Positions 24,061 through 58,700 of a DNA stretch of 64,000 bases are shown here, piece by piece. Below the pieces are notes generated by a model, which was given only the letters and a program-made list of their open reading frames with translations, was not told where the DNA came from and did not search any database. Source of the DNA: Balanoglossus misakiensis. Taxonomy: Eukaryota; Animalia; Hemichordata. A program made the position numbers and the translations under genes. Each line of letters opens with the position of its first letter. Position 1 is the first letter of the stretch. The stretch is taken from positions 8,812,001 to 8,876,000 of the forward strand of contig CM082591.2 of the NCBI GenBank assembly GCA_040954595.2. Reading direction: 5' to 3'.

Positions 24061-24431
24061 TAATGAATATGCATACATGCTACAGCTGCATATTTTATTT
24101 CTTTAGAACGCTCTGGAACATGCTCGCATTCGAAAGAATATCTCATTTGCTTCTTGAGTGTGAGTGCATCATCGTCTACACAATAAAAATCGGGGGGGGG
24201 GGGCACAGTGGGTAATTTCTACCACAACCACGCATTTCAAACCAGGCAAGCGAACTGCAAACTTCCGGTGTCTGAGCAAGGGGTTTGATGTGCCTTGTGT
24301 TGTGCACACTATAATACTTATGTGTCAGTTTGGTCAGTCAGACCACGATACCCGAGATCGTAAAATGCTTGGGTTAGGTCGTCGAGGAGGCTGCAACTGC
24401 GGCCACAGGTCAAGTCGGTGTGTGTTGTAAA

Positions 24432-24694
24432 AGACGTATTTCATGTGGGACCAAAATTTGTGTCATAAACCCCTGCGTCGCTCACGGTGATTGGTAGCTC
24501 TAATGTCCCTATGTCCCCTTTCCGTGCAGTCATTGGCTGCCTATACGTCATTTCGTCTCATTAGTATTTACTGTTTCGAATTCAGCTCATTCATTGGCTG
24601 CTTTACGTTCTGGTCCCTTGCCTCACTTTCGAGTGTTCATTGCCTCGTTCTTTTATGTGCTCCTCACCGTCACGTAATATGCGGGACTAGCCAA
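24432..24694 (+). repeat. Left terminal inverted repeat (263 bp)
   Basis: AGACGTATTTCATGTGGGACC...GGGACTAGCCAA; reverse complement of 28351-28613 with about 5 mismatches counted by eye. Confidence 0.92.
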
Positions 24695-25090
24695 AGACTC
24701 CCAGACTCCAGGTGTTTCAATCTTGACTTTGTGAAGCCGCCAATTTTCCCCAACTAAAAAGAAACGTGGGCCTAGGAGCGACGTGATTGAATCATGGAAA
24801 CTGTTTCGGGCAACAGAAACCCCAAGAGCATATTGACACTTTGCGATTTTTAAACCATCTTTTCATTTGTCCCCTTTTCAGTGTTTGTTTTGCCATTACC
24901 AAACACATTGTCAAGCTAACGCAAAAAATAAAATCGCGTGGCTGAAAAGTACTCGGTAATACCAATGTCTCTGCGCGCGCGCGCACACACACACACACGT
25001 CAACGCAGTTGCATATTTCGAATATAACAAGTACAAAAAAAACACATCATTATTTTATTTTAAAGATCTTTAGTAGATTTGCGCCAAGAC

Positions 25091-26218
25091 TCAACGCATG
25101 AAACGATACAATCTGATATGTCGCTGGGCTAAAAATGCGCACACTTCTACAATAATCGGCATTAGCCAACGTGGGTGCCGATAAACAGAATTAATTGCCC
25201 TATAAGTTTTCATATATTTTATGGCATGTTCAACATAAACTCGGGCAAAATTAAATTCTCTATTGAATACGAGCATCTTTGGGCGGTACGGACCACGCAA
25301 CTCACGGGTTTGAAATCTCGTTAATAGCGGATACATATTTGGGTATCCTTGGTCAGCCAAAAAATATACATCTCGTGGAATCTGCAATTCACCTTTCAAC
25401 CCTATCGATGGTAACAATCTGTACTGCATGGCATAATTAGCATGTCCCAGAAATCCCGACTGAATGAAAATAATGTTACATTGATTGTCCACAATAACTT
25501 GGGTGCTCATTGCATGATGACGAGCGCATCCACTGTAAAAGTTATGCTGTTCTTCAACTTCGGGACGATATATTTCATGTAGAGTACCATCGATTGTACC
25601 TACGGCATTAGGAAAATGTTCCCATTGTCCACGTAGTTGTCCAAAGCGTTCCAACGATGGCCAGCGGACGCTACGTCGAAAGTAATGCCAAATTAATGAG
25701 AGAAGGTGACGTATTTCTCTATGAATAGTCGTGTTGCTTACCCCAAACCACGCTGCTAGTAAGTCTAGAGTAGGATAATGCCGTAGCCAAATAAAAGTGA
25801 GAAGAAAACGATTTCTTGAATCCATGGCAGGATGACGACGTAGATTCGGTTCCAGGTCATGTATAATAACTTCCATCGATTGAATGGTTTCTCCAGTTAA
25901 CATCCAGAAATGGCGAGGACGTCCTTGTAATGATGTCCAAACATCTACGCCATTACCTCGGCCAATACCATCATCGTTTGAAAAAAGCAGGTTGTATATG
26001 GTTGGTGGTCGTCGTAAAGGTGGACGCAGGATGACACACAACAGACGTGTCAAGATCTGGATAAACGACAGATCATCAACCAACTGCGCTAGATGATACA
26101 CTTCCCGTTCTTCAGAATACATTGGGAGATGGATGACCACGGAGACTACAGACAATATCACCATCATACTTCGGATACAAGATATGAGAAGCAATATTTG
26201 ATTTCGCTGGAGCGGCAT
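25091..26218 (-). CDS. Harbinger/IS5-like DDE transposase (HTH + DDE_Tnp_4 type), 375 aa from first ATG
   Basis: Open ORF; HTH FLLTFIWLRHYPTLDLLAAWFGVSNTTIHR; catalytic motifs GTIDGT, LADQGY and ARVYVEHAI; polyA signal at 25054-25059 (-). The ORF-track start at 26266 is a GTG. Confidence 0.92.
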   Translation of the reverse strand: MPLQRNQILLLISCIRSMMVILSVVSVVIHLPMYSEEREVYHLAQLVDDLSFIQILTRLLCVILRPPLRRPPTIYNLLFSNDDGIGRGNGVDVWTSLQGRPRHFWMLTGETIQSMEVIIHDLEPNLRRHPAMDSRNRFLLTFIWLRHYPTLDLLAAWFGVSNTTIHREIRHLLSLIWHYFRRSVRWPSLERFGQLRGQWEHFPNAVGTIDGTLHEIYRPEVEEQHNFYSGCARHHAMSTQVIVDNQCNIIFIQSGFLGHANYAMQYRLLPSIGLKGELQIPRDVYFLADQGYPNMYPLLTRFQTRELRGPYRPKMLVFNREFNFARVYVEHAIKYMKTYRAINSVYRHPRWLMPIIVEVCAFLAQRHIRLYRFMR

Positions 26219-26703
26219 TTTGAATGATATTGAAGTTTGTGGTGTTCCGTTTGAAGATGCTTTCACGATGTGGGATTTGTCACATACACTAACTTGTACA
26301 ACCCTATTCTAAGCATGCGTTGCGAAATACAGTTTTAACATGTCTAAAGTTTCATTTGCATAACCGGACCGTTGACCAGTCACAAATAAGCAGGAGTGGG
26401 ATCACATCGCACTCCAGATGTTCAATTTTGAATGCCAATAGACACGGAGGCATCCACAAGTTGTTTCTTATTTCCCTTTTCATTTTTTGTATGGCTGAAA
26501 ATTAACCATTTATTTTCTACTTTTAATGTCATCAACCCTTTTGAAATAGTTTTCAGCAAAGTTTAATGTGACCAGAAATCATGTATAATTCATATGGCCA
26601 ATAAAACTTTGATTCGATTCTGTAAAATTAGTCGATCACACGAGGGATACCTGCAGATTAATAGGGAGTCAATTTGCCGTATCCGATTCATTTCGCGACA
26701 GCC

Positions 26704-27736
26704 ATGGCTTCTACGCGTACACCACGCTGTGTTGTAACGGACGCCGAGATAAATTTGATTAGGGCCGGGATGAGAATCCATAATACAAATTATGGAAATA
26801 TTGTCCATTTCATGAGACAGTACAGTCACCGTGGGATGCCAGCCAATGCAGTACGGCTCTATCAAACCGGACTGATGAAACCACTGCGTCGGCGTGTTCG
26901 AGATGTTGTCGCTAAACGTATCTCAGAGTAAGTTTTATTATAGTTTCAAACAGAGGGGAGTATTTCTCAAACAGGGAATGCACATGAAGTCTGTGAAATG
27001 TGAGTTTGACGGGTATTGTCTCCCAGAAAAGCACGAAATTTCGTATTGCATCTATCGCAGCCAAAGTTTCTGTGTTTCTCTATGTAACTCCTCTGCTAAT
27101 TTGCATATTTTGTCTTGACCGTTTCTTTGAATATAATTCACAAGTACATGTATGGCAAATATTGATATCTCCACTATCATTGAAATCTAGCTATGAAATA
27201 CAGTACGATTTTTAATATTCATGTGCCGTCCTGGTAATCAGTCAGCAATTTTTGTTTATAGCGTCCGACAAATGCGTGAACGGGAGATGAGGTATGCGGC
27301 GCTGAGAACACCGGAGCAGAGGGCACCGGTACAAGCACTGGCACCACGACCACCTCCACCACCACCACTGCCCCCGCCGCCGACACAAGCGCCTCCACCA
27401 CCACCACAGCCGCTACCGCAAGCGCCTCCACCACCGACACAAGCACCACCACCACCACCACAGCCACAACCACTTCTACCAGAAGATGAACCTCCTGCTG
27501 CCGATGAGCCCTTGGACCATCACAGGGAGCCCAATCCCGATGATGACGACGGGAGGGGGATCCCTGCACCAGAGGACGCCCAAGAGAGACCACCACAGGG
27601 CAGAAGACGGCTGTACCATCTAGTGCGAGAGGCCCATGAATTATATGTGGACTTCTTGAGAAACACTCTCCCTGACACTATGGCGAATGTAAATCGCACG
27701 CTGGATCGCCTCAACGACCACTTAGACAGATTGTGA
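26704..27736 (+). CDS. Harbinger ORF2-type Myb/SANT-like protein with Pro-rich linker; exons 26704-26927 and 27262-27736
   Basis: Kozak GCCATGG at 26704; donor GA|GTAAGT and acceptor TTTATAG|C join in frame (…KRISD VRQMRE…); N-terminus VTDAEINLIRAGMRIHNTNYGNIVHF resembles a degenerate Myb/SANT repeat; AATAAA at 27749. Confidence 0.75.
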
Positions 27737-28350
27737 GCACATAACACGAATAAAATATTTTTTATCTATCACCTAAGATTTCTCATTTATCTGGGTTTTT
27801 TTAATATTCCCCACCACCAATGCAACAGCCCCTTACATGAAGACTTAGCCTTTTAGTGATAGTATGTTGTATCGATAAAGAGCATATTGCAAACATATTG
27901 AAGGAAATGCCAATACAATTGCCAGGAAACAAATAGCGAGAGCACAAACATTTCCCAGAGTTCCGCTGTTGAAGATATCTTTTTTTTATCTTTATACTGC
28001 CCAAATATGTTTTTATTTTCTAGGAATAGAAAAACAACAACAAATATTTGACATTCAGGGGGTACCTAGACTCTATGGCAGTCGCTGTGCCTGTCGATAA
28101 GGAATGAAATTTTCATACTGCATACGACGCGCTGCCGCGCCAGGCAAAGCCACTAGCGACTGTGTGATTAGCGTCGCGTCCATATGACGTTCTAGCGGAC
28201 GCGCATTTCAGTATTGGGGCAAGACTAGGGAATGGCCCGTAGCTTTGACGCCGGAGCTTCATGACACGGTGACAAACAATAGGGTGCAGCGCAGGTGCAA
28301 AACAAATTTAGTCTTTACATATGTTTCGACCATGCTCTGTCTGGTAATGA

Positions 28351-28613
28351 TTGGCTAGTCCCGCATATTACGTGACGGTGAGGAGCACATAAAAGAACGA
28401 GGCAATGAACACTCGAAAGTGAGGCAAGGGACAAGAACGTAAAGCAGCCAATGAATAAGCTGAATTCGGAACAGTAAATACTAATGAGACGAAATGACGT
28501 ATAGGCAGCCAATGACTGAACGGAAAGGGGACATAGGGACATTAGAGCTACCAATCACCGTGAGCGACGCAGGGGTTTAGGACACAAATTTTGGTCCCAC
28601 ATGAAATACGTCT
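28351..28613 (-). repeat. Right terminal inverted repeat (263 bp)
   Basis: TTGGCTAGTCCC...GGTCCCACATGAAATACGTCT, inverse of 24432-24694. Confidence 0.92.
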
Positions 28614-28759
28614 AGTCAAACATGGTAAATGCGTCCCGAACAGCAACACGCTCACTCTACCCACAGTCACTGTGCTCTACCTTTCTGTCGATCGTTTGCA
28701 TGTCAGTTTCACGTTGGCTCGTTACAATGCCCCTATGCTTATCGTAATTCCGGGATCGT

Positions 28760-39040: not shown

Positions 39041-39160
39041 CTAAACAATTGACATGATCTGCACTCATAGAGAAACCATCATCACCACAATTACAGCTAA
39101 ATCCACCCTCTGCATTGAGACAACCTCCAACACAGACAGAATCTGAACACTCATTCACAT
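39041..39160 (-). CDS. Calcium-binding EGF-like exon (phase 1-1, orphan)
   Basis: DVNECSDSVCVGGCLNAEGGFSCNCGDDGFSMSADHVNCL with TTTCAG acceptor and GTAAGT donor; 120 bp. Confidence 0.75.
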
Positions 39161-41004
39161 CTGAAAATAGAGAAAAAAAACATCCATTGTAATTATTCAA
39201 GTCAATACCAATCCTCCCTTCCATTAACAATTTTCCTAAAGGGAACAAATTCACATGGCTTTGAAATTAAGTATTAACAGTGATATTTTAATATTTCTAA
39301 CGGACACGACTTTTATAAACGTTGAGTCTTTTTGTGGATTTGTAGAAATTATCTACAAACTGAGCTGTCAGGTCATGGCTGTTTGTGCTTTGGCATGCAC
39401 ACATATCCCAGAATGCCCAACAGGGTTGGCAGTGAAATTGATAAACTCTTCACCTAAGATTTCAAACTCGTAGATCTCAATAGATTCTCACACTCCTGGC
39501 ATGCTGAGAGTGTGGGATCAGAGTGTGAGAACAAATCAATCCCACATTCTCACTGAATCGAAAGCTGTATATGATGCGAGCGCTGATTGGATGACAAAGC
39601 GTTATTTAATAACGTGCGCTAAATGTTATCCAATGACGTGATACAGAAACTACAATGTGCCAGATGACAGTTCAAGAGTCATTTATTCTATGTTTTAAGA
39701 CGAATTGGGCTAATTTATGGCCATGTGAGAAATATAATCTCACACACCAAGGTCCTGGGATCATATTTCGCACACTCGTCAGGGATATTTTGTCCCACAC
39801 TCGCCTGCAGCTTGTTTGGGACAGAAAATCCACAATTCATGTGAGAACTATGAAATTTGTACAGTCCTATGAACCTAAAACATGAAAAAAAAAATGTTTG
39901 CTTGTTGGTAGTTTCCCGGAACAATTAAAAACCGCGTCTCCTCATCAATTTTGACATTTTGAAAGATGCTAAACAAAACTCATATTTTGGCCTTATCGGT
40001 AGCAGAGTGACGTCATTTTCTGGGTAGCCAGAACTCACTTCCGCCACAGCATTTGGGTGTTTCACATTTCTCCGTTGTTGCTGGCTTATCTGTCGACAAG
40101 CAAGGTAACGTAAATAAGGGATTTATAAGTGGCCTTGACAGTGACCTTCACATAAGACTTCTTGACCCTATAACCTTTCATGTGATGAGCAGTTGCCAAA
40201 ATAACTTTCTCTTTGTGACCAATCCAGACCGAACACTTTTCTATTCTACTACACAGAACAAACTAAACGCAAAGTAACTCATGAAGGAAAACGCTGACAA
40301 AATCTATGCCTACCAGTAATTTTCAAATCAGGTAACTGCATCTGAATTTATACAAATTAATTGAATATTGCCTTTGTGGTTGTCTGATGTCAAATTTTAA
40401 TTGAAGAGTTGTTGTGTTAGAGTTAACTTGCGTGAATTGCTTGCCTTTCATTCTGACAGTCAAGTATAATTTGAGGATGCAGCTCCCACTTCTAGATTGA
40501 AAATATGAAATATTTAAAATATATGTATTTATATTTTAATGTAAAACACTATATCACAAGTCATCCTTTCACCAGAGGTGGGCCAAACCGTAAAGGAAAC
40601 TGTGAACAATCATTCAATGCTCAGATATTTGGATTGACAACTCTACTCTTTGGCACAATATTAAATTTCAAACATTTTTGAATACAGCAATAAATGCATT
40701 TAATATTGCATGTATTAAATTTTGCTATTTTACAATTGGGGCCAGTGGGTGAGCATTTCAAGAAAAGAAAAGTCACTGTTTGTTCCTTTGATTTGCGTAT
40801 CATTTGATCACTGCAACCGTACACTTTCATTGACGAGAAGTGTCAAAACATCCACAGGTCTATTCATTGAATGTGAGGTGCAAAGCTAGAAATGGAGATG
40901 TTACAAGTAGTGCACGAGCGTCGTATGTGGAAATCTAATGGTTGGAGGCGAGAAATAAAAATCGCATTGTTTGTTGTTTGCACATGCGCACAAAGTCATT
41001 AAAT

Positions 41005-41845
41005 ATGGTGTCCTTCATGTCATTTCTGGAACGATCGCGATCGTCGACGAAAAAAGTTGTTGCATCTGTCTCACGAGAGCATCATCTCGTTTTGACAACT
41101 CAAAATCGTATGCCAAACACTTAGGGGCATGTTTCGGAGCCAGCGCTGAAAGTAGGAGTGGCTATTTGTGCATGACGTGCAAAGCAAGTATCAGAAAGTT
41201 TTGCGAGGATCGATCGTTGGACTTCAGCCACTTACTTGACAAAAAAGGCCAGAAAGGTGGAAGTAAAGGACAAAGGCAGTATGGGGGACAAAGAATAAAA
41301 CTGGCAAGGTGGGAGAGTTCTTCATCCACGTCGACGAGTAGCGAGGAAATAGGCAGCGAAGGTTCCGGCTGTGACTACCGGAGTTGGTTATCTGCGGCAG
41401 GTGCATGTGGATTGCTGCCACCCGATGTCATTGTCAGTATTCTCCATCACGTAAATGTCACTGATATTGTGAATTTCACATCAACATGTTCATTTTTGAA
41501 TACATTTCGAGCTGATCCTATAATTTGGCGTCAGAAATTTATTCATGATTTTCCAGAGAAGTATGCCACACTGATATCTCATAAGGCAGGTTTTTTTGAT
41601 AACACCACATCATGGTTTGAAATTTACAAATTATCGAAATTTTCTGATCTCAACCACCAAAATGACACACAGTAATATTTAAGTCTGATCGAAGCACTGT
41701 CTGTTCAAATGAATAATGCTTCACGGAAATTAATGACCTGAAGGAAAAGTTGGCAGCAACACAAAAATCTCTCAGTGATATTTTGACCATGTCACCATCC
41801 AAACCACTCACAGTAACACAAGAAAAAATCTTCAAAACTATGACA
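41005..41845 (+). pseudogene. Intronless SINHCAF/FAM60A-like zinc finger + F-box + coiled-coil fusion gene, disabled and truncated
   Basis: CCIC..ASSRF..SK.Y....CFG...RSG.LC..C...FSHLLD at 41058-41240; F-box LLPPDVIVSILHHV..TDIVNFTSTC..D.IIWR at ~41412-41540. ATG 41005 (AAATATGG) needs +1 A in the A6 run 41050-55; stop at 41673; further frameshift ~41720. Confidence 0.72.
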
Positions 41846-41869
41846 GTAGTTCAAGAAAGAATGGGCTTA

Positions 41870-43040
41870 AAGAATGACACTTTTTGGGCAAAAACTTGCC
41901 AAAAAGGCACTTTTATCTTGAGTGGCATCAATAAAACTGCTTTTTTGGAAATTTTTCACATATAGTGGGCATATAATACATTATCAGATCTCGGAAAGTG
42001 AAGAAAATATATAAATTCTGAGTGTTTTCTGAAAATAATTTTTTTGGGGCAAAAAGTGGCAAAAATGGCATTTTTTCTTGAGTAGGATCAATAAGAGTGC
42101 TATTTCTAGAATCAGCACCATTTTTTACATAGGATGAACATTTCATATATCACATGATCTCTGAGCTATATGAAGAAAAGTTTGTTTTTGATTTTTTTTC
42201 TAAAACGGCCTTTTTGGGCAAAATTTTTCCAAAAGGGCATTTTTGCATTAGGTTGGGTCAATAAATCTGCTTTTTTGGAATAATCACCAAATTTTACATA
42301 GGGTGGGCATATAATACATTATCAGATCTCCGAAAGTGAAGAAAATATATAAATTTTGAGTGTTTTCTAAAAATGACGTTTTTGGGCAAAAAGTGGCAAA
42401 AATGGCATTTTTTCTTGAGTGGGGTCAATAAGACTGCTATTTCTGGAATCAGCACCATTTTTTACATAGAATGGACATTTCATATATCCAATGATCTCTG
42501 AATATGAAAAACACAATTTATTTTTAGTTTTTTTTGTAAAAATGACCTTTTTTGACCTCAAAAAGTGGCCAAAAATGTCATTTTTGTATTTATTGAGGTC
42601 AAAAAGACTGCTTTATTTTCTAAAGTCACCACTTTTAACATAGAATTGACTTTCCATATATCACCAGATCAATCATTATGAAGAAAACCGTGTGTTTTAA
42701 ATGTTTTCTAAAAATGACGTTTTTTGGGCAAAAAATGGTCAAAAAGGCAATTTTGTGTTGTTTTGGGTCAATCGGACTACTTTTTTCGTTATATTCATCA
42801 AATTTTACATAGAATAAGCAAATCATATGTCATCAGATCTCAGAATGTGACGAAAACAGTGTGTTTTTAGTGTTTTCTAAAAAACACCATTTTTGGGTTA
42901 AAAATGGCCAAAATAGCAATTTTGTCGTGAGTGGGGTCAATAAGACTGACTTTTTTGGAATCAGCACCATTTTTTACATAGAATGGACTTCTCAAACCTT
43001 CCTTACCAAAAATTCTGATTAACGGCACCTATCTCCTAGG
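41870..43040. repeat. ~170-bp tandem array (7 units, partly dimeric), probably the subterminal region and end of a DNA transposon
   Basis: Unit anchor (G/A)TCAATAA-like at ~41929, 42088, 42259, 42426, 42600, 42769 and 42938; ends ...AACGGCACCTATCTCCTA; opposite end not found. Confidence 0.75.
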
Positions 43041-46000
43041 GTAATTTTTAAGTATCACAATTCTCAATTCACTCCGTTGCAAATCACTACGGTTGGAAAA
43101 CGTTCAACATGAAGAGTTCAAATGTAGAGTTCTTACATGAGTAGTGACATCTCGGTTTCTTCCACCATAGTTTCAGTCTTCATGTAGAATAAAATGGACT
43201 GCTGGTAGGTCTTCATCCAACCACAGGCAAATGATTCCACTTACCGAAGACAACAAAAGGAGAATCCTGGTCTCGGCACCAAATGTGACCCCTGGTATAG
43301 GCTTGGTAATGGTGTTGTCATTTGGCATTGCGTTGTGTAATTTCAAACCCATTCGCTCAGGGGACACAGCTATACACTGACCCGACACACATTAATGTAC
43401 GTTCATGACGTTTATTTCTTTGGTCAGCGGCTCCATCTGTACTTGGCTGCTCGCATTGGCCAAGTCAGCAAAGAGAGAGAAAAGAATTACAATACTCACA
43501 AAACCAAAGAAAATATACAGAGCATACTTAACAGAAAATACTACGGCGCATAAAGTGCTTTCCGAGTCCAATATTCACACATTTGCAGCAAAAATCACTG
43601 AACATTCTCTCAAAATATTACAGATGATGGTTCTTTTAACACTAACACATCATTATATTTCAATTATAGGGGTGGATGGCAATGATTTAACGCTTGCATG
43701 GGCGATTTAAAAGGGAGAGAAAAATATTACCAACCTACTCGCATTGGCCAAGTCAGCAAAGAGACCGGTTGTGTCTCTTTGCCCCTTGAGGGCGCCGTAC
43801 ACCTGGCCAAAGTTCGCATGCAAATACGTATAGTATTATGCAAATACTGGACAGTCATTGGGTGAACACCACCGTCAATGAATTATCAGAAACTAAGCAT
43901 TATCTTTGTATATATATATTAGAAAATCACAAAAATCCGGGTCACAAGTAATTTAATGCACGTATGTCTATATCAAACCTCTCCATTGAAATGAAACTTC
44001 CGTAAAATCTGCAAAACGAGGCCGTTAAAAACTGTCTGCATGGTTCAGGTTCCAGAACAAGAAATTCACTCTTTGAAATCAACATTCTCAGGTTATTTTT
44101 TATTCTTTTACCTAGCTTAGTTTATTTCTGTAGTAAACTCTTATAGTGCTCAAGACGTTTTCTGTCATTAAAATCGATTTAGTGGGTTTGAGATATCCCA
44201 GACCCACCTTGTAGGATACTAATAAGACCGCTTGCATTCACGCAAATTTGAGCCGGATATTTCAAAGCGTTCACACAAGACTGCAATTACTGCTAGAATT
44301 ACTTTCGTTTTAACCTATTCTTCAAATTGTTCGTAAACAAGACAGCGGAATTGAAAGCAAAAAACATGCGCTCATTTATTTTGGGCTACGCTAATTTACT
44401 TTTTGCTGACTCATATGTGGTAAATGCAAAAATTCTTCTCATGTTTCTGGCATATAACTTGTATTGGTGGACACGTAGCCATATATACATCAGAAATATT
44501 TCAATTTCGTTTGTTTTGTAACGACCGCTTGCATAATATTCACGCAAATATGAGCCGGATATCTCAAAGCGTTCACACAAGACTGCAATTACTGCTAGAA
44601 TTACTTTCGTTTTAACCAATTCTTCGTAAACAAGACAGCGGAAAGTGAAATCGAAACTTGTCGTATTTCAAGACATTTTGTTTGGCTGTGCCGATTGCGT
44701 TTATGTAATCAACAAATTAGGAACGCGATTTTAACATCTTAGCCTAATTATTAAGTAACGGAAAATATGTACTTTGAGTGGATTCTTAACTCAGTAATTA
44801 CCATAGACATAAATACCAGAGACATGTTGATTTCAAAGAGTACATGAATTTCTTGTTCTGGAATCTTAAAACAACAAAATGGTGACACCATAAATAATAG
44901 TGTACCACACCAGCGTTTAATGCTAAATATATACGCGGGATGATGAACAAAATTCATTTGGTTATAGGAGCCTTGGAATTTAATTACTTTCGTTTTAACA
45001 TATGCTTAATTCTTCGTAAACAAGATAGCTAAAAAGAAAATCGGAACTGAAGTCGCACTGTAAAACATTTTGGTTCGCTTTGCCGATTGCGTTTATTTAA
45101 TCAACAAATAAGGGACGCAATTTAGACATCTTAACACAATTATTAACTAACGGAAATAAACTTAGGTTTAGAACAAAACTGTGGATTGTTCACGATGTGC
45201 GTCATTAGATGTAAGGATTTCCGACCACCACCAGTTGCACATTAATTGTTCCTAACCCGCAACATTTTAATTTTCTTACCTTCGGCAGGACCTTGTCTGT
45301 TTTAGAGGACGTCCTACGTCCTGTTAAAGCGGGTAGCTCGTCTCACGCGCATGCGCGTAACTTCCCAGGGACAGAGGCTCTCTCTCACTGCCCTTTTTTC
45401 ATTAATTATATTTGACACAAGACCCCGTTTATGTTATTCTACATGTGGATATATATTCAATCAATGTTCGACCACACACAACTTCCATCCCACTTGCAGA
45501 CAAGAGAGTGAAAAACTCGCCAAAATGAATAAACAGTAGAGACGGATTTTTCATTTTGGCGAGATTTTCACTCTCGTGACTTTGTCCCTTTATTAAAGAG
45601 TAGCAGAACAAGTGATAAGATAGAAGACCCCTTTATTGACCGTTTCCTATTTACCAGAGGTATATACACACTTCATACACACTGAACACAAGGAACTCGT
45701 GATGACATGTAGTATAGGTTGGTAATGATCGTCCGTTCGATCTCAAAATTGGCGGGCACCGTGGTGATGGTTACAATCATATAATGTCAATTAATAGAAG
45801 CAGAAGTGATTGGAGGACAGAAATTATTGAATTTAAATGCAAATAACGATAACAGGATATAACACCGTATAGCATGATAAAATACGAATCCAAAATGTAA
45901 TGACAATATCCAAAATTAGTGAACCAAATATGATAAAACTTACAACAATTTATCACGCATAGAGCTGTATTGTCAGACATTGAGTGCCACATTGCATTTT

Positions 46001-46687
46001 ACAGGATTTGAACAACGACCCAACAATTCACGTAGCAAGCAGGTATAAATTTAATTACTAATATACATATTGAACAACTTTGTACAATCATTGCTGTAAT
46101 CAAAAATGTAAAAAAATGATTGAAATACTTTTCTTGCCTTTAGTCTGCAGCTAGCACTCAGTCGTACATGTGCAGATTGTTATCCCATGTGGTCCAACAT
46201 AGGCTTATGTCATACTGATGTGTGCACGTGTTATCTATATTTAACAAAACGGCAGGACAGGCCCCCTTTCTGGAGTTGCATGAAATTATCAAGGAGTACA
46301 TTTTCCTGATAAAGATTGTCCATGATGTGCATGTGACAGAATGAAAAATTGATCTCACGAGATGATGGGTACTACAACTATAAAAATATGCGCATTAGTC
46401 ATTTTGTGCTATTCATGGCTATCAAGTAATATTTTTGATATAAAAAGTCAATGTTTAGTAAAAATTGCCCCTAAGTTCTGTTTTGCCCTATATATGACCT
46501 ATATTCTATATTCTTATACTCACTTTCGTAATCATTCATGGTAATTTCACATATATATTTGTATACAAATTGACACTATTGGTCAAAGAAGCCTGAAAAT
46601 CACTGGATAGTATTTTGTGGTGGGTTTTATGGTGATGGACATATATCCTATACTAGTTTCACCATGTCCAAATTTGATTCTGACAGT

Positions 46688-46761
46688 CTACAGCAGTTGC
46701 TGGATAGCAATAACTGTCATCATCACAATAAGTTGAACATGATATCTTCCATGACCAGGTT
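46688..46761 (-). CDS. Probable terminal laccase exon with hydrophobic tail
   Basis: Acceptor TTTTTTTCGCAG; phase-1 join gives [24 protein letters not shown]. Confidence 0.55.
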
Positions 46762-49700
46762 CTGCGAAAAAAAGACAATAATCATGATATGTAAGTATAC
46801 GTATGTACAGGTATGTGTGTGTGTTCTTGTAGCTGGCACTCAGTATGGCTGAATTCTTTACTATCAATCACGTGATCTGGCCATGTGACCCATGGCGTTG
46901 TCATTTCCAGGTGATGGGCAAACAATATTTCGGCTTCCAGTAAAAGTTTTTATGAGTTTGTTTTCACTTTAAAACTGCCAGACACGTAACATGTATCATG
47001 TATAATGCCTTATCAGCCCCATGGAATTTCGTTTGCACAGTCTTTGTCTGCACCACATTGCTGAAATTGCCCGTCATCTGGAAATTTGAATGCCAACCTA
47101 ACTGCGCCCGAACGGCATTTGATATTGAAGAATATGATTTTATTTGACCACTGAATTTAGTTTTATTTAACTGAGCTGTGTGTAAAATGTGGAAATTTGA
47201 AATCCAACGTAACTGCGCCTGAGCGCGTCTGACGTCATTTGATATCGAAAAATATCAAATATATAAAATCACCTGTAATGTTGAATAAACTTAAAGGTCT
47301 AATGCCATGCCCTATACAACCACGCGTAAAATCACTATTTGGGTCTTGAAGTTAACGTATGTTACTATCTTGCAATGCGTTTTGCCCCTTGTGCTTAGAT
47401 AACAAGCAAGTAAAAGCGGCGGGTGGGCGTGTACCCCTAACCCAACTCAGTCGAGTTTTTTCGGCTTTTTGAAGTTCAGTGGAAGGCTTATCTTGATGTG
47501 GACAAATAGTCTTTCACACCTTTGTAAATCCTCTGCCTGTAATGTAAGGCAAGGGCTTCCTTTGCTTTGAACACTGTTTATATAGCTTGTCTTTGTCTGT
47601 GGACTTAATTACTCATGGACTGCTAATTACACTTTACTGTTAGCAGAATGGTACACTAGGACGTAGTGTACTTGTTTGTCCATATGCAAATACCTTCGCC
47701 TGGCTCGAGTGCGAAGTGGCTCCCTGATCACAGGCATGAAAAAAGGGGGCAAATTCCGGCATTCGCGCACATTTTTCGGAACCGACACAATAGGCAATGC
47801 ATAGACAGGTACCCTAGGTGAGCTTTTGACGTGGAAAAATGAAAACTTTCCAAAGCATGGCATGAGACCTTTAAGCCAGGAAAATAACTTATCCAAGCAC
47901 ATGGACGTGGCATCTTGACTAGTCTGGACCTTCGAGCGAGCGAGTGTGGGTGTAGCTCTGCGTACAGGCGTGGATGGAAGCGAGCGCACGCTGTGTCAAC
48001 GATCACGAAGATCCAGACTAGACAAGAAGACACGTCTCTGTCTATCAAAGCACATAAACCACGACGTAAAATATTGCTACATGTAGGAGAGTATGGCTCA
48101 CCAGTTCCACCAACAGCCTCTTCAAACTCCTCGTCTGACCAATCAAAGTTCCCACACGTTTTGAATCCCTTGGGTGTTGGAGGCATCTTCTTGTGGCTAC
48201 CCTCCTTCAACATTAATGCCATGCCTTCTACTTGATGAATCTCAATGTGACAGTGAACAAACCACCAACCTACAGACAGTCAATATTTGTACCATTAAAA
48301 AGGGCAGCGAGAGAGAGACTTTGTCCCTTTAAGCAAACAGTAGTGGACACCTAAGAATTATCCTCACCTCGGTTGTCAGCTACAAATCGAATAATAACAT
48401 ATCCACCGACAGGTACAATGACGGTATCTTTAATTGGAGGATTGTCCAGATTTAAACCAGGGATATTGTCGCCACTCCAGTTGCCATTGGCCCATTTTCC
48501 AGCATTGCATCGCACACTGCCATTACAGTCAATGTCAGTAGTATCCTCAAGAAATTTTCCAGTTGTTTCGTCGTATTGAGGAAAGCCAACCTTCAAAACA
48601 TAGAAGTGGTGCCCATGCACATGAACAGGGTGAGCTGTTCCTTGTAGACCTTCCCCTGTGAAATCAGAGATAGCAGTATCGTATCAGGGCTCATGGCAAT
48701 TGAATTGTTTTTTATTTTCAATGCTATAACATAACACTTATTTTAATGGAAATGTTGAGCTTGCGTCCTAAATCAACTTGTATTGTGTTTAGCTAAGAAG
48801 CCACAGTTAAGAATCTTTTTAAAAGATTCTCATTAAATTGTCAAATTTGTCGAATGGAACAGTGAGAGGAATCAGCTTTAGTCCCTAACATTTGACATTA
48901 TTTTGATTGGCTTTTATGTTGTTTTTAATACTCCCTGAAATATATTCATTGACCGGTTGTCAAGGTTTCGTTCATAGGCCATACATGAATACTTCCATCA
49001 TTGAATTTCTAGTCAGTACAGGCGTATTCTTATGTATTATAACCATGTACAAAGTGTTAATTGAGCTGTAAGTCTGTTAGCATGTTTCATTGAGTAGAAC
49101 AAAATCCAGAGCCCTTTAAAGGCACATAAGCTGCAACTTTCTGGATAATTATCATAATTTTTGTTTCAAACTGTACTACCATTAGTCCATGATGGCATTA
49201 AAAACCCTAAATATGAGTGCATATGCAAGTTTTAACCAGATAAATAATAAAGCTAGGCCGCAAGTGAATATGGCCGCCACCGTGGGAAAATGCAAGAAAC
49301 AATGAAAATGTTGCATTTCCGGTTATGAAAATTCATAAACAAAAAAACATGATCTCAACTAATTGAGCTTATGGAAGTAAATGTACACCACTGAGACATT
49401 ATATTTTCCTTTTTTATTGCAATATTGCACTTTTTTTTGAAAATTACAAGAATTTTCGTTTTTCTTTAATTTTTTGCCATTTTGTCATAATTAAGTGTTG
49501 AGCTTGATATATTATCATGAAATATCATTTAATTGACATGATTAAAAGCAAATATGAGATTATTTAAAACTTTTATTTTTTAGCCAGTTGCAGCTGATGT
49601 GCCTTTAAATACCCAAAATAATGTCAAGATTAGCCTTAAACATATGAAGTTGTCATTTAAATATACTTGTTCTGTGATGAATTTCTTTGTTACTGAGCAC

Positions 49701-52700
49701 AGAAGAGAAGAATTGAACTCACCCAATCGGATATTGTAGAGAACAATTTGAACGGTATTGCCTGGTGTTATTTCTACAAAGTAGGTGCAATCACAGTGGT
49801 TTCGTTCACATTCCTCATCATTACACGGCACCATGTATTCGGAGTAATCGTCACCTGGAAGAGTCTATCAGAAGTAATAATATGGGGTTCATACAGGGAC
49901 CATTAAGGCGTCTCTGGTCAAATACTGGCATAAATTATTATGTGTGAACGGTTTAAAGGGACAATGTCTGTCTCTCGTGCTGCCCTTTTTCCATTAATTA
50001 TGTTTGATACAAGACACAGTTTATATTATTCTACATGTGGATATATAGTGAATCAACATATGAACACACACAACTTCCATCTCGTTTGTAGGATATGAGA
50101 GTAAACATCCCGCCAAAATGAATAAATGGTAAACACCGATTATTCATTTTGGCAAGTTTTTCACTCTCGTGTCTACAAGTTGGATGGAACTTGTATGTGT
50201 TTGAATGTTGATTCACTATATATCCACATGTAGAATAATATAAATGGGGTCTTGAATCAAACGTGATGAATGGGAAAAGGGCAGCACGAGAGACAGACTT
50301 TGTCCTTTTAAGTGGTCCTGAAACGTCTCTGATTTGAGACGGCTTTGCCGGCCAGACCTGAGCCGTGTAAGGATTAACCTCTTCGCAACCCATTGTCTAC
50401 GTGGCCGAGCCCCAGCGCCTACACATAAACTTTGCATGTTTGTGGACACAAGGCGACTCAAAGGAAAACAGTGTCTCTGAACTGTTTCGAATTTTCCATG
50501 TGTGAACCTGGTAAATGTTTTCATTTGTATTTTTTTGTGTGGACAAAAATACCATCACTGTGATACATGTATAAAGTGTGACCAATTATGACATGACAAT
50601 TAAATGTGGCGGATTCCACATTTGTTTGAAACACTTCCTGGTTCATTTCTATGGTTCATATAGGTTGTGTTAATAAGCCAAATTCTGGACATTTCATCAT
50701 GTTCCATGAATCTGAACAAAAAACTGCAGAAAATACACAAAAATACATACTGAAAATATAGCGAAAAGTTAGAGCTAATTGAGCTTGAAGTTTAACCTTC
50801 TAAGTCAGTCTTAACATTCTGTATACCTCACTCGAATACCATCACGGGAAACAACGACGTCTAGCAATTTGTAATTAGGCCAAAAAATAACATGCGCTTT
50901 TCCGATTACATGGTTTAAGAAATGGATAGATAGGTAGTTTATTATGGCATTTTTGTATATCTCTGGCCGTCGTTGTATAGAATGATGTCATAGTTCTTGC
51001 GAGATAAACACGATTTCATCATAGTTCTCGCGCAATATTTAAATAATAACACATGTTAGCGAGGGCTGGTGATCTGCGGCTCGGGCATCATCAATATTAT
51101 GGTCAGAGATCACCAGCCCTCGTGCAGGCCAAACATCATCATATTGCCCGAGCATGACATGTGTTATTAATTTTATTATACCGAACAAACTCTTACGCAT
51201 GTATACATGATTGACAACACAGAACACATGTCAACTTTTAACACTAATAAATCTTTAATTTGCAAGATAACGTCAACTTTTAACAACATTTTTTTTAAAT
51301 TTTGCCAATACTACGGTTTATTTCTTCACTGCTTCTGCCCCCCAAAAATGTTAAAATTCCCCCCTGTTATCGTTGCGTTGGAAAATAGTGATGCAGCTGC
51401 TGATCTTGGCCTGTCAATATGTACGCGCGGAGACAGTGGATGCAGTTTCTCTGTGGAGTGAGCCTGAGAAATTACAGGGGACAGTGGAGGGTGTTCTTTC
51501 CGATCGGTTTGTTTTCATACCAAACGCTATCACTGACATGATACTTATCGCGTGGACGTTGAAACAGAGCATCACATGCCGGGTTCATCTGCACGGACAG
51601 GACACTCTAGTGGGTTTGATGAGTTGACGTACATAATACCACCCGACACCCCGTCATCGTCGACCTGATGGTTCTTCGTCACTTCACTGCCGACCTGAAT
51701 AACAAACTTGTTACCACTATCGTCCGCCTTTATTTCAAAATGTTCTACGCGGAGATCCCGTTGACCTTCTCTCCCACGTCGGCAAAAATAAAGCATGATG
51801 TTGAACCAAACTTTGTGAATTAGGACGGTCGCATCAACATCGGAGCGAGAAAAATAGCTCGCGAATTTCTTGAGGTCGCCCGGAAGTATCGCTGGCTTGT
51901 GAACGACGTTTCCCTTTCCTTGGCTTTTCAGCTGCTTACATACGGCCGTGAACATCTTGCGGCTTTCAGAAAACTCTTCGCCATTTACAATATCAAAGTT
52001 ACGGCGCAGTGGTGGTTGACTGTAGTAACGCTGGATGCCATAGCGAAGTGACTGCAGTGATTTTTGGGAGTATTTTTCTCCTTTCTGTGTACGTACCTCT
52101 GGGTAGAACGTTGTCAACGCGGAATCAAGAGTCGCCGCTGTGAACCGCTCCAATTCCCGGTCGCCGTACCCGAACTTGCTAGTCAAATAATGTTTAAACA
52201 CAGAGACAGCGCCGTTCATCGCCATTCTTGTATTCTTACTGTCCATTTCGATTAAAATACTGTCCAGCTCAGCTGGAGATAACTCTGCATGCCGCCGTGA
52301 AGCCATAGCTAGCTGTACAACGGGAAATCACACAACTGGCAGTGCACCAGCGAACGACAATTTGTTATGCGCAGAAAAGTTGCGCAGAACCTAAAACCCT
52401 TACTCAGCCTGTAATATACACTCAGCGCGCGCGTATCCCCGGCCCGTAGCCCCTACCTACGGGCCATATACTCTGTCAACCATGTAATATCACGTTCTTT
52501 TCTATGTCACGTGGTATGGTCTCAGCCAATCAATAGTACGGAATACAGAGTGAGGTATAATAATCATAACTTTTGTATACATGTATTTGACATCGTTATT
52601 TTTACTTCTGAGTTTTCGACGCTCTAAAAAAGTTTAGGGTCGGCAGGGGAAAATTAGGGTAGGTAGGGTATTCGGAACAGCACATATTTTTATTTATGCC

Positions 52701-55700
52701 TTATGTACTTACTGCAGGTGGGGCTGATGGTGGGATAAATCGTCGGCCATTAACAGAAGATCTCAGAGCAGGATTCCCAGAGAAATGAAAATTAATGAAA
52801 TGTTCTTCGAAGCCGGCACCACCAGAACTCTTGGGGACTTTAGCATGGCCTGGAGCCTTGAACCCAGATATTGGTATGCAGGTGCTGTATTGATTAGCTG
52901 GATGGTACCTGTCATGACAATTTTACATCAAGTAATATATGTAAGCAACACTTGAAATGAACTTCAACACCACCACTGTTTGAAAGGCCTACGGTTGTCT
53001 TATGCACATGTGCATAATTTTGAGTTTATTGCGTCCTATTCAAATGTTCTGCAAATTTTGCTTTTGATGCATTTAAATAGTTGACTGCCTTCGCTTCCTT
53101 CAATATTTCATGCACACTGTATAAGTAGACTCTAGTTTTGTCCCTTCTTTTCACCCAATATGCTGTCTTTTCCCGATCTCCGAAACAGACTATGGTCGCT
53201 GCCATCTTGTCTGTTGTTAGGACAGCACACTGCCTTATGGCATTGACTGTATATAATTTTTGTAACCAGAGTCTCCGGTTTGGCACATGCGCATAAGACG
53301 ATTGTCGCCCTTTAAAGCGATTTCCTTAACAACATGTTACTTTACGTTTTAATGGCATTACTGATATAAATGTAAGTTTCAGAACAGATTCGAAAAATTC
53401 CCAGTCACCCACCAGGGCTTTGGTTATGGATGTAGCCGTGTGTAGGTGGTGGATAGTAGTACATGCACTTTAATCAAAGGTTTGGTTTGGAAATATGGTT
53501 TAGTGGTAAGCGTTAAAACAAGTAAAGAATAATTTGAATGTCTAATGATTACGAACCCAAAGGGACAATTGGCAACATGACATGGTTCCGTAGCTGTGCA
53601 GACATCGAGTTGAGTGGTAGGAAATGCAACTGGCGCGCTTTCATAATGCAGTATAGCTTCAACATGACCAAAGTTCACTCTTTCCTACAAGATAAACGAG
53701 AAAAATAGACAAGCTTAATGGGACAAATTCTCTTTCTCCCGTTTATGTTATTCTACGTGTGGATATATAGTGAATCAAAGTTCGACCACACACAACTTCC
53801 ATCCCCTTCGTATGATATGAGAGTAAAATTGCGCCCAAACTCTCGTGTCAACAAGTGGGGTGGAAGTTGTGTGTGGTCGAACGTTGATTCATTATATATC
53901 CACATGTAGAATAATATAAACGGTGTCTTGTATTAAATAATAACACATGATAGCGAGGGCAATATCACGATTTGAAGCCTGCACGAGGGATGGTGATCTC
54001 TGACTACAATATTGATGATGCCCGAGCCGCAGGCGAGGGTATCATCAATATTGTGGTCAGAGATCACCAGCCCGAGGGCAGGCTTCAAATCGTGATGTTG
54101 CCCGAGCATCATGTGTTATTAATTTTATTACGCCGAACATTTGAACGTACATACAAGGCAGGCATAGAAGAACGTAGACGCGCGTCCATATGTCGTACGT
54201 TGCTGAGAATGTAAAATGTCTCGATCTCCCAAGAATTATACGATACCTACTTCGAACTTAGATTATTTTGAAAATACTGCACTGTTGGTTGCGATTTTGT
54301 TGTATTTACTGTCCGTTTGTGGTAAAATATCGTCCAGTTGAACAGGTGTTAAGCCTACATTGTATGTGTCGCTTTGAAGCCATAGATGCGGGAGTTGACT
54401 GATAGTGGAGGAAGCCATTGAACGACAGTTTGGAACGCGCAGAAGTCGCGCGCAGAACACAAAACAACCCAGCGGGCAATATCAGCGCACGCGACAGGGC
54501 TTTATCAACTCTAGCCATGTTATATCACTTTTTTTTCTATATCACGTGAGCGCGTCTCAGCCAATCACGAATATGGTATAATACGTGAGGTGTAATAATC
54601 AAACATAATGAATAGAAAAAAAGGCAGAGAGAAAGACTTTGTCCCTTTACTTGACTTGACTCTTAAACATGATTAAATAGTACCAGTACGACGGCTGTGC
54701 ATCACGTGTAAAATTACTCATGACACTAAATCCACAAAGCTGGATTTTGATCTGTGCGTCTACGTCTGTTGTGTACTTGTTATGACAGGTTATGGTGATC
54801 TCGACTCATGTATTGCTCTGAGTGATTGGCATGCATGAAATGAGGACACATGAACAGGGTAGGTTTTGGATATATGCACGAGCCTTCAACTGATTCTGCT
54901 GACGTTATTCAGCGCTGTCAACAAAATCCTCCCACTTATTTCGCAAACAAATCAATTATTCATTCATTCAATTAATCGATCGCTTGATCGATCGATCAAA
55001 CGACCGATCGATCGGTCAGTTAGCCAGTCAGTCAGCCAGCCAATCGATTGACTGTCAACAAACTTAATCGATCGATAACCTGTTCGTTCGAGTAATGGAT
55101 CGATGAATAGGAAAGTTGGTAAAATACAAATTACTTACATTCTTTATGTTGTCCACCTCAAGAGTGTCTGCTCGTATCCAGTAATTTGACTGCGGTTTAT
55201 TGCTCTCAATATAGAAGTCAAATCTCTCTCCGGTATGAATTATAATAGATTCCACTAATTGAGGCGTCACGTAATTTCCATCGGTTGCAAATACATGAAG
55301 ATCGTGACCGTCAATTGAAACACGGAAGGCGTAGATCATCGCAGCGTTGATCAGCCGAAACCGATAAAATTTCCTAAACTTAACAGTGACAGATTCCAAG
55401 GGAATGACTGTGTTTTCAGCAATTCCATTGAGATCGTAGTGCCAGCCTGTGGGGAAAATGGGATTGAATGAATCGCCCAAGGTTTAGCAAACAACTTCAT
55501 CACATGAAAGTAAATTTTAATAGTCCGGCTGGTTTAATTTATTTTTTCGAATCTCTTTAGGGCAAATTTTGCCATGTTAGGTCAAAACCTCTGTTTGAGA
55601 GAAACTGTTAAATTTCTCTAATCTATTCTTTGCTATGATGTACTAAGGAAACATAAACATCGCTATGGGCATTTTAAATTATTCTTGTAATGAATGTCTA

Positions 55701-58700
55701 CTTTCTCGATACCTTGCACCACTACTCAGCGGTGATTTAAGATGATTCTGTTGAAATTGTCATTTTTTTCTCTCATTTCTTTCTTGGACCCGGTAATTAG
55801 CTTACATTGAATGGTATTGATTATTGGACCTGATTTCATGTCTTATTCAAAATGTGAAATTGCAAGCATTAAATCACGGTTTACCTTTTCCATTGATTAA
55901 CCCTGACACAAACGGAGTCACTCCGATTTCTGTGCCATCTAATTGTCGCGTTTGGTAGAAACATTGTGCTGTGTTACTGTAGCCGGGAGTGAATCTACCA
56001 ATAAAATAGTAGTTGTCGACTATTATAATATTATGACATGAGGTAGAACGTCACGTGATATGATTAATAGTTCCTGAAGGAAAACAATGAGACTTTAATT
56101 GAAACTGCATCAGCTCACATAGTCTAGAATCCAGACTACAGTATTTTTCGCTATGCTCCACATATAGTCTAGCCTTGTTGTCTAATTCTTAAATTTTTGC
56201 TATTTGCATGTCAAAGGACTTTAACCATGGCGACTCAGATCATGATCATGGCCTCTAAGAAGTAAATTATAACCTGATCTACTATTGATTGGCTGAATTA
56301 ATGAGCAGGGGTGTTTTTCAATATCAGTGACCTGAGTTGCAATGGTTACAGTCCTTTGACATGCAAATACCAAAAATTCAAGAATTAGACGACAAGACCA
56401 GACTGTGTGGAGAAAAACACACAAGTCTGGATTCTAGACTACACCTCAGCATCAGTGCGCCCTCTAAGCCCATATGCTGCACCACTGACACAACAAACTC
56501 ACTGATTATCCACACTACAGTCAAGCCTGTGTTAGTGGCCATCTCTATACTGAGCTCACTACTTACCATGTGATCAAGATCATGACATCTTATGGGTCAA
56601 TTACAACTTGATCTTCTACTGATTGGCTGCATTAATGATCAGAGGTATCAGCCAGAACGCAACGCCTTCATTAACATATGCAAATGAGGAATCTGATTTG
56701 AAAAACGAGGTCGTTACACTGAGCCCCGAAAAGGGTGTCTGAATTGGGTCATTTTTTCCCGAACTTTGGTCATGAACCGCTATCAACAGCGTGTGTTCTG
56801 AGTAGTTTTGTTGGTTTTATTTAAAGGTACATATATCGAACTATATCTTCGGGAAATTTTTTGATGATTAATGCTATAGTTTTAGAGAAATGACATAAAG
56901 TGCAGAGTAATGAAAATTCACGTTTTCGAAACATGCGTCGCTAAATTCTTGAACGGACTGTTGCACCAAGTTCTTTTAGAAATCCGATGTAATATTTATA
57001 AAGTGAAGACATTGGCTATGGAAAGCCACAGCTGTCTTAAGTCCATTGTTACCATTATATGATGCCCATACATCATTATACGACGCTCATACATCTTTAT
57101 ACAATGTGCATATATCATTATACGCTGTGCATACATCATTATACGTCGGTCATTCACCATGATACTATGCCCGTTCAACATACAACGCAGGTTTGGCTTT
57201 ATACTATGCAGACATGTCATTATACTATGCTATTACTAACCGCAATTCCGTCAAAGAGGGCGTGTGATGACCTTTGACCTACTTTTTTAAGAACCTGCAT
57301 ATACATGATATATGCATATATAGCTTATACTACCTGTTCTAAATGTACCGGAGTTCTGATTTTTGTGCACATGGGTATTCTCCCTGCCAGGACCTACCCC
57401 AAATATTTTGGTAATTTTGGCAATGACCTTTGACCTACTTTTGACACATCGTTTTTTTTCTGCATATCCAATTCCAGGCTAACTTATAGGGCTAGAAGTT
57501 TGGTTTTTGATGCAGGTGAATTTGTATGTGATCAAAATATTTTGCTACTTTTCAGGACCCCTTGACCTCTGCTGACCACATTAAATATGTGCATACCTAA
57601 TTACAGGTGAATTAATAGAGCTAAAGGTTTTGGATATGGATTAGTATGGGGCCACAATTTTCGCCCAAATTTTGGCTGACCTCAGATGACCTTTGACCTG
57701 CTTTTGCATATCTCGGTATCCAAAGCAGATACAGCCTTGACGTTTGGAGGTATGGCGCCATAATGAAAAGCCAACGTTTTGGGTCACCTGTGACATGTGC
57801 TTAACTCATTATTTATGTGCATACCTAATTCTAGGCGAACCAATAGGGTCTGGTTTTTGTTGGACCCAGACTAGTATGAGGTCCAATATTTTTGCCCAAA
57901 TATGGGGTGACCTCAGGTGACCTTTGACTTACTTTCCCATATCTTGGTATCCACAGCAGATACAGCCTTGGCATATGCTGGTTACCATGGGAACCGCTTG
58001 TGCCCCGCAAAGGCTGCTTGCAGCTTTAATTAAATCTGTACTTGTTATGGATGACATTTTTCTCACCCAAAAAATGTTTATTCAAGCCGAAAATTACAAA
58101 ATATTATCTTTTTATCATCGAAGTACGTTTTTCGATGATAAAATATGTATTTAACAATTTCCGATGTGAAAAAACAGTGATTTGGTGCCAAAAATATCAT
58201 ACATAACATGTCGAGAGAGTTTGATCAAATATATTCATATTTTTACAGAGTTATAAAAACTTATTTTCATACTCGTACTGCAGATGCCAAACCGCGATGG
58301 TCGCCCGAAAATGCTTAACTACTTTCGGTCTCCTGAAACCGAATCCGAATCCGAGACCGAGACCGAAACCGAATCCGAGTCTTACTTCAGTATCGTCATG
58401 TGTATGTTACGCCCTCTTTGACGGAATTGCGGTTAGTAATAGCATAGTATAATGACATGTCTGCATAGTATAAAGCCAAACGCGCGCCGTATGTTGAACA
58501 GGCATACTATCATGGTTAATGAGCGACGTATAATGATGAATGCACAGCGTATAACGATGCACAAGCAGCGTATAAAGATGCACAAGCAGCGTATAAAGAT
58601 GCACAAGCAGCGTATAATGATGCACAAGCAGCGTATAATGATGTATAAGCGTCGTATAATGATGTATGGGCAGCGTATTATGATGTATGCACAGCGTATA

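Follow-up and report, generated by a model that had tools for sequence, protein, structure and literature searches.

On balance, a 64,000-nucleotide stretch of Balanoglossus misakiensis DNA (contig CM082591.2; the window, below, means this whole stretch) probably contains the broken 5′ part of a gene for a predicted Chapaev-related cut-and-paste transposase of the RAG1 fold. The enzyme would carry an N-terminal arm made of a FAM60A (SINHCAF)-type zinc finger and an F-box, and the F-box of the intact element would recruit SKP1-CUL1, making the transposase its own ubiquitin-ligase receptor. That the coding stretch is a transposase N-terminus is very probable. Binding of SKP1 by the F-box of intact relatives is quite likely, and action of the F-box in cis at the transpososome stands at about even chances.

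Finger, F-box and lesions of the window copy

The finger (CCIC...CMTC) and F-box quoted in the preliminary description do stand in a single unbroken frame, which runs from stop to stop over 238 aa at 40959..41675 (+). Within it the F-box (residues 152-195; 41412..41543, +) exceeds the Pfam F-box-like cut-off of 24.3 bits (28.2 bits, E 1.6e-6). The finger (residues 32-97; 41052..41249, +) is a single C4 site in which C34, C37, C71 and C74 of P0001 are present, and it matches FAM60A over profile positions 13-81 of 206 with E 7.1e-6 and 26.6 bits, narrowly below the cut-off of 27. Alignment by hhalign of a profile of 13 finger plus F-box rows (window row included) with 10 host-type FAM60A proteins gave a probability of 98.9 (E 1.9e-17, 72 columns, 36% identity), pointing clearly to homology between the window finger and the N-terminal C4 finger of SINHCAF. 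The finger is modeled as one small fold, predicted to be a treble-clef, with ZAD domains as best solved matches at low Z; its family has four conserved Cys ligands only, plus one extra Cys pair position. A homodimer prediction scored 0.00, which is evidence neither way. Sequence profiles compared with the PDB returned F-boxes only and no RAG1, Transib, ZAD or SINHCAF match, and the RAG1 NZD entry does not appear among the fold matches and could be missing from the searched library.

The window copy is a dead fragment, as the preliminary description had suspected, and makes no finger plus F-box transposase: it lacks an in-frame start, carries a stop and a frameshift, and is truncated. Ahead of the finger, between 40959 and 41060, there is no in-frame ATG. 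The nearest, at 41005, is in a different frame from the finger and opens a segment (41005..41055, +) that closes with a run of six A at 41050-41055; in relatives of the same type Met sits 4-10 residues ahead of the first Cys. Contigs covering the stretch were found in three runs (X1, X2 and X3) of one sample, which is possibly the window's source and hence not independent; contig depth in these runs was not used as copy number. Because the A run is gapless in the X1 and X2 contigs that span it, the missing start is common to the most frequent contig versions, and an assembly error behind it is unsupported. The premature stop (41673..41675, +) was seen in the window copy only; every contig of X1 and X3 that covers position 41673 has another letter there. 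Three different letters occur at 41155 among contigs, and 7 of 22 listed substitutions in the frame are silent, with no clear signal of constraint.

Past the stop, the coding sequence picks up again at 41717-41861 in a shifted frame, which bears the family motif PLT..QEKIF. This segment scores 10.6 bits on a family profile built without the window row, a value reached by none of 500 shuffles (best 7.8). The continuation as a whole (41676..41861, +) begins with a likely coiled coil; a frameshift follows near 41718, where an additional base is present in a single minority contig, and then comes the motif that opens the transposase body. It is cut at 41861 by a 169-bp tandem array (41870..42988), which stands in place of the remaining transposase gene. 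Contigs of the sample without the stop read on into the next family motif, and those of X1 and X3 continue past 41861 with other sequence than the window. There, by eye and in frame, an Asp-Gly follows the motif's Phe by twelve residues, a spacing shared by 9 of 17 matched relatives (19 examined), with 13-14 in the remaining ones. The adaptor that the preliminary description envisaged is very probably not a separate protein; it is better read as the N-terminal arm of a transposase of Chapaev/RAG1 type. The window copy belongs to the transposase-type family, and its coding sequence extends past 41675.

Searches of the window with tblastn (42 relatives) and with the family profile found no further transposase piece. 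The terminal inverted repeats and 4-bp target duplication of Chapaev transposons were not found in the window: 41 raw 16-mer pairs include none marking ends, no CAC..GTG pair has a 4-bp duplication, a 15-mer that could mark the left end occurs only once, and the right end is lost from the window. One X2 contig, in a loose end read by eye, fuses letters resembling 40980-40990 to 41687, possibly a deletion derivative losing exactly the finger and F-box.

Relatives join the same arm to a transposase core

An HMMER search of 1.84 billion representative proteins (E<=0.001) gave 42 matches: 13 host-SINHCAF-like rows (FAM60A E<=1e-21, without transposase parts), one F-box only, one coiled-coil artefact and 27 of another type. 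One of the 13 host-like rows, from a flatworm, is named FAM60A, and the label is extended to the other 12; no informative name is attached to any transposase-type protein that was looked up. FAM60A and F-box are both matched (E<=0.05) in 11 of the 42 relatives, so that other copies of the fusion exist. In these proteins a coiled coil and conserved motifs come after the F-box, and the longer ones continue without a frame break into a core of the DUF1280 (Chapaev) type, consistent with the mobile-element setting suggested at the outset. DUF1280 is above cut-off in P0007, P0032 and P0055-P0058, the last four being extra proteins from an alignment search; the window copy retains only the first motif before this core. 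P0032 has FAM60A, F-box and DUF1280 matches all in one frame. The modeled core of the relatives matches RAG1, with 10-14% identity in structural alignments, and a RAG1-like fold is predicted for it.

The members vary in length and in the strength of their domains. P0015 and P0051, both 189 aa, end after the F-box. In a subgroup (P0002, P0007, P0034 and P0055-P0058) the finger is followed by a long linker of low complexity, and the F-box comprises its first two helices only; several frames of the P0002/P0007 subgroup stop just past a shared PAPG motif, which suggests a conserved intron at that point. A word-index search with P0001 had 0 matches among 159 candidates, though the HMMER scan recovered the family; a search for longer proteins gave one match, unrelated, and an Atlas search with whole P0032 gave no usable match. 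Searches of viral contigs (P0032, P0001) and metagenome contigs (P0032, P0049) yielded no confirmed locus, giving no sign of a viral setting and no disproof of one.

In a tree of 43 fingers, unrooted and built on 77 columns only, the 13 host-type rows are separate (97/92) and the window finger falls with transposase-type rows (95/86), which diverge widely among themselves and from the host fingers. Homology with SINHCAF stands, and the capture of a host module proposed in the preliminary description becomes one of two directions: the finger may have been captured from a host or donated to one, and the unrooted tree cannot choose.

Proposed role of the F-box and alternative explanations

In the proposed mechanism the transposase body would bind the element ends and the finger may help keep the enzyme attached to DNA or chromatin, much as the FAM60A finger is needed for promoter binding. 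The F-box would recruit SKP1-CUL1-RBX1, with the transposase as the receptor, and the resulting SKP1-CUL1-F-box (SCF) ligase could tag the transposase itself, leading to its turnover or to its release once integration is complete, or could tag chromatin proteins nearby. The F-box would in this way fill the job slot of the RING ligase in RAG1 and some Chapaevs. An extended form of this reading, which we consider less likely than not, makes the family a third RAG1/Chapaev branch that kept the single-zinc, ZAD-like head of the hypothetical NZD ancestor and has an F-box for the RING, and whose finger was donated to the host as the SINHCAF N-terminus.

Several observations weigh against the receptor mechanism. 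Neither the full catalytic triad nor the element ends were obtained; a DKG motif in the relatives contains a candidate first Asp, and the later triad residues lie beyond the retrieved frames. The F-box of the P0002/P0007 subgroup is weak and short, and P0032 has weak similarity to Elongin A. These last two features, together with the lack of a recognised substrate-binding domain after the F-box, would suit an F-box that is not an SCF receptor and works as a SKP1-sequestering decoy, an Elongin C binder or a structural linker, which we consider rather unlikely.

Another possibility is that the finger mimics host SINHCAF and binds the HDAC1/2 complex, which SCF then destroys, so that the arm is an anti-silencing device inside the transposase. 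The clear homology of the fingers and an F-box that is intact by Pfam in the window protein speak for it. Published work bears on it in both directions. Cys mutants of the human FAM60A finger have reduced promoter binding and keep SIN3-HDAC co-immunoprecipitation (PMC3463326). Sin3/HDAC binding of FAM60A lies mainly in C-terminal residues 149-221, and a 1-148 fragment showed no complex binding by immunoblot, C-terminal motif 1 being crucial; the HDAC1/HDAC2/RBBP4/RBBP7 submodule was recovered with both N- and C-terminal parts (PMC13254352). The region equivalent to human 149-221 is missing from the window protein, whose Pfam match stops at 81 of 206, although several host-type relatives match only to profile position 117-153 and a missing C-terminal match is not diagnostic alone. 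The case for SIN3 docking, central to the preliminary description, is weak because most SIN3-HDAC binding lies in the absent C-terminus; contact with HDAC may nevertheless occur, given the submodule recovered with both ends. Since the finger is needed for promoter binding while SIN3-HDAC binding is mainly C-terminal, the part of FAM60A retained in the window would be the chromatin-binding part. The wide divergence of the transposase-type fingers is also unlike what might be expected of a mimic bound to a conserved host surface. We regard the mimic as improbable, and an HDAC-degrading role for the arm has low odds.

It is very unlikely that the segment is a host gene, stand-alone or domesticated, that encodes a short protein of finger and F-box. 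Both domains share one open frame closed by a stop, a possible promoter and 5′ exons lie upstream, and the two 189-aa relatives likewise end after the F-box, but the in-frame start is absent, the stop was seen in the window copy only, related contigs continue into the transposase motif, and the substitutions reveal no clear constraint. DNA transposons do capture host fragments, yet it is likewise very unlikely that finger and F-box are chance passengers without a role for the element: proteins with no more than 21-38% identity to P0032 have both domains in an unchanged order and in the reading frame of the core, and the four zinc ligands are conserved in at least 90% of rows.

Genomic surroundings

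The window is eukaryotic, repeat-rich DNA. The transposase fragment appears to lie antisense in an intron of a minus-strand host gene that would join two exons with canonical splice edges, one encoding a calcium-binding EGF domain by Pfam (39043..39160, -) and the other likely coding and ending in a GT donor (43245..43329, -). Upstream of the fragment, inspection by eye suggests that the element may have had its promoter and non-coding 5′ exons at 40008..40331 (+), with splice-donor-like sites near 40105 and 40332. Just to its left, 39485-39847 is a small element with a short terminal inverted repeat; many contigs stop at 39485 with dissimilar flanks, consistent with a high-copy miniature inverted-repeat transposable element. 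A repeat run near 39831-39847, picked up in the terminal-repeat search, belongs to this separate element.

Other features lie further away. Positions 1-10237 are taken up by a degenerate (GAT)n array of 10 kb that includes runs of GTTT and has a GC skew of about 0.96-0.99. A PIF/Harbinger-like element at 24423-28622 looks young, with 284-nt inverted arms that are 95% complementary; it contains a DDE_Tnp_4 plus HTH_Tnp_4 frame (25091-26308, -) and a Pro-rich frame without Pfam match (27197-27736, +). Exons of a multicopper oxidase (laccase-like) gene (Pfam Cu-oxidase, Cu-oxidase_2) extend over 47700-55500 (-) and enclose a 251-aa frame (51572-52327, -) with a weak QRICH1-domain match (E 7e-6, below cut-off), which we take to resemble a Crypton-type tyrosine recombinase. 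A palindromic repeat family spans 45370-60770 in four copies, near 45400, 50000, 53800 and 60500, and inverted 21-bp tandem arrays lie at 57053-57263 and 58409-59009.

Comparison with known systems

SINHCAF/FAM60A (PF15396) shares with the family a homologous N-terminal C4 finger. The family differs in lacking the C-terminal SIN3-HDAC-binding region and in its fusion to an F-box and a transposase, and the fingers of the two group apart. Through the finger that they have in common, a human chromatin subunit whose origin is unexplained becomes linked to a family of transposases; if the finger was donated to the host, the N-terminus of this animal SIN3-HDAC subunit would be a domesticated transposase domain. 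Among host proteins, FBH1, an F-box DNA helicase, and KDM2A/KDM2B, with a zinc finger and an F-box, attach an SCF-joining F-box to a DNA enzyme or a chromatin finger; these are host genes, not mobile, and unrelated to the family beyond the F-box.

DUF1280 (PF06918) denotes putative Chapaev transposases, grouped with RAG1 (PMC3985635). Chapaev transposases (CMC or Transib-superfamily group) begin with the zinc domain called Chapa; in two of their subgroups a RING comes next, as it does in RAG1, where the RING is a ubiquitin ligase (PMC4411706). The relatives described here resemble them in the DUF1280 core and in a zinc finger at the extreme N-terminus, and resemble the RING subgroups in placing an E3-type module between finger and core. 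They are unlike Chapaev in having a single FAM60A-type C4 finger, not a two-zinc Chapa, and an F-box, not a RING; Pfam found no RING after the zinc domain in the window protein or its relatives, and the F-box takes that position. In a comparison made without direct alignment to Chapa sequences, the two zinc sites of Chapa (ZFa+ZFb) are not both present, and in the relatives Met stands so close to the first Cys (4-10 residues) that no N-terminal ZFb part is left; we therefore file the family as Chapaev-related and not as Chapaev. The best reading is that the single-zinc finger and F-box occupy the Chapa and RING positions of a Chapaev-related lineage.

The family shares with RAG1/RAG1L (NZD, RING and core) the predicted core fold and the order of zinc domain, ubiquitin-ligase module and core; a partner gene resembling RAG2 was not seen in an analysis that did not extend to the genomic context of the relatives. 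NZD and the predicted Chapa are two-zinc folds for which a ZAD-related single-zinc ancestor has been proposed, and the ZFa half of NZD has been likened to ZAD, the best fold match of the window finger model; FAM60A, SINHCAF and F-box are unmentioned in the main text of that study (Hong et al., bioRxiv 10.64898/2026.01.24.700457). The family, with its single zinc site, could represent the single-zinc intermediate that has been postulated for the N-terminal domain of RAG1. Our literature search, with Repbase, Dfam, supplements and most subscription journals outside its scope, found no transposase with a FAM60A-type finger and F-box head. The family bears on why RAG1 and some Chapaev transposases contain a ubiquitin ligase. 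The F-box requires SKP1-CUL1-RBX1, whereas the RAG1 RING recruits E2 itself, and the family likely draws on the protein-tagging machinery by a second route; an F-box in the RING position of a sister lineage suggests two separate rounds of selection for ubiquitylation at the transpososome.
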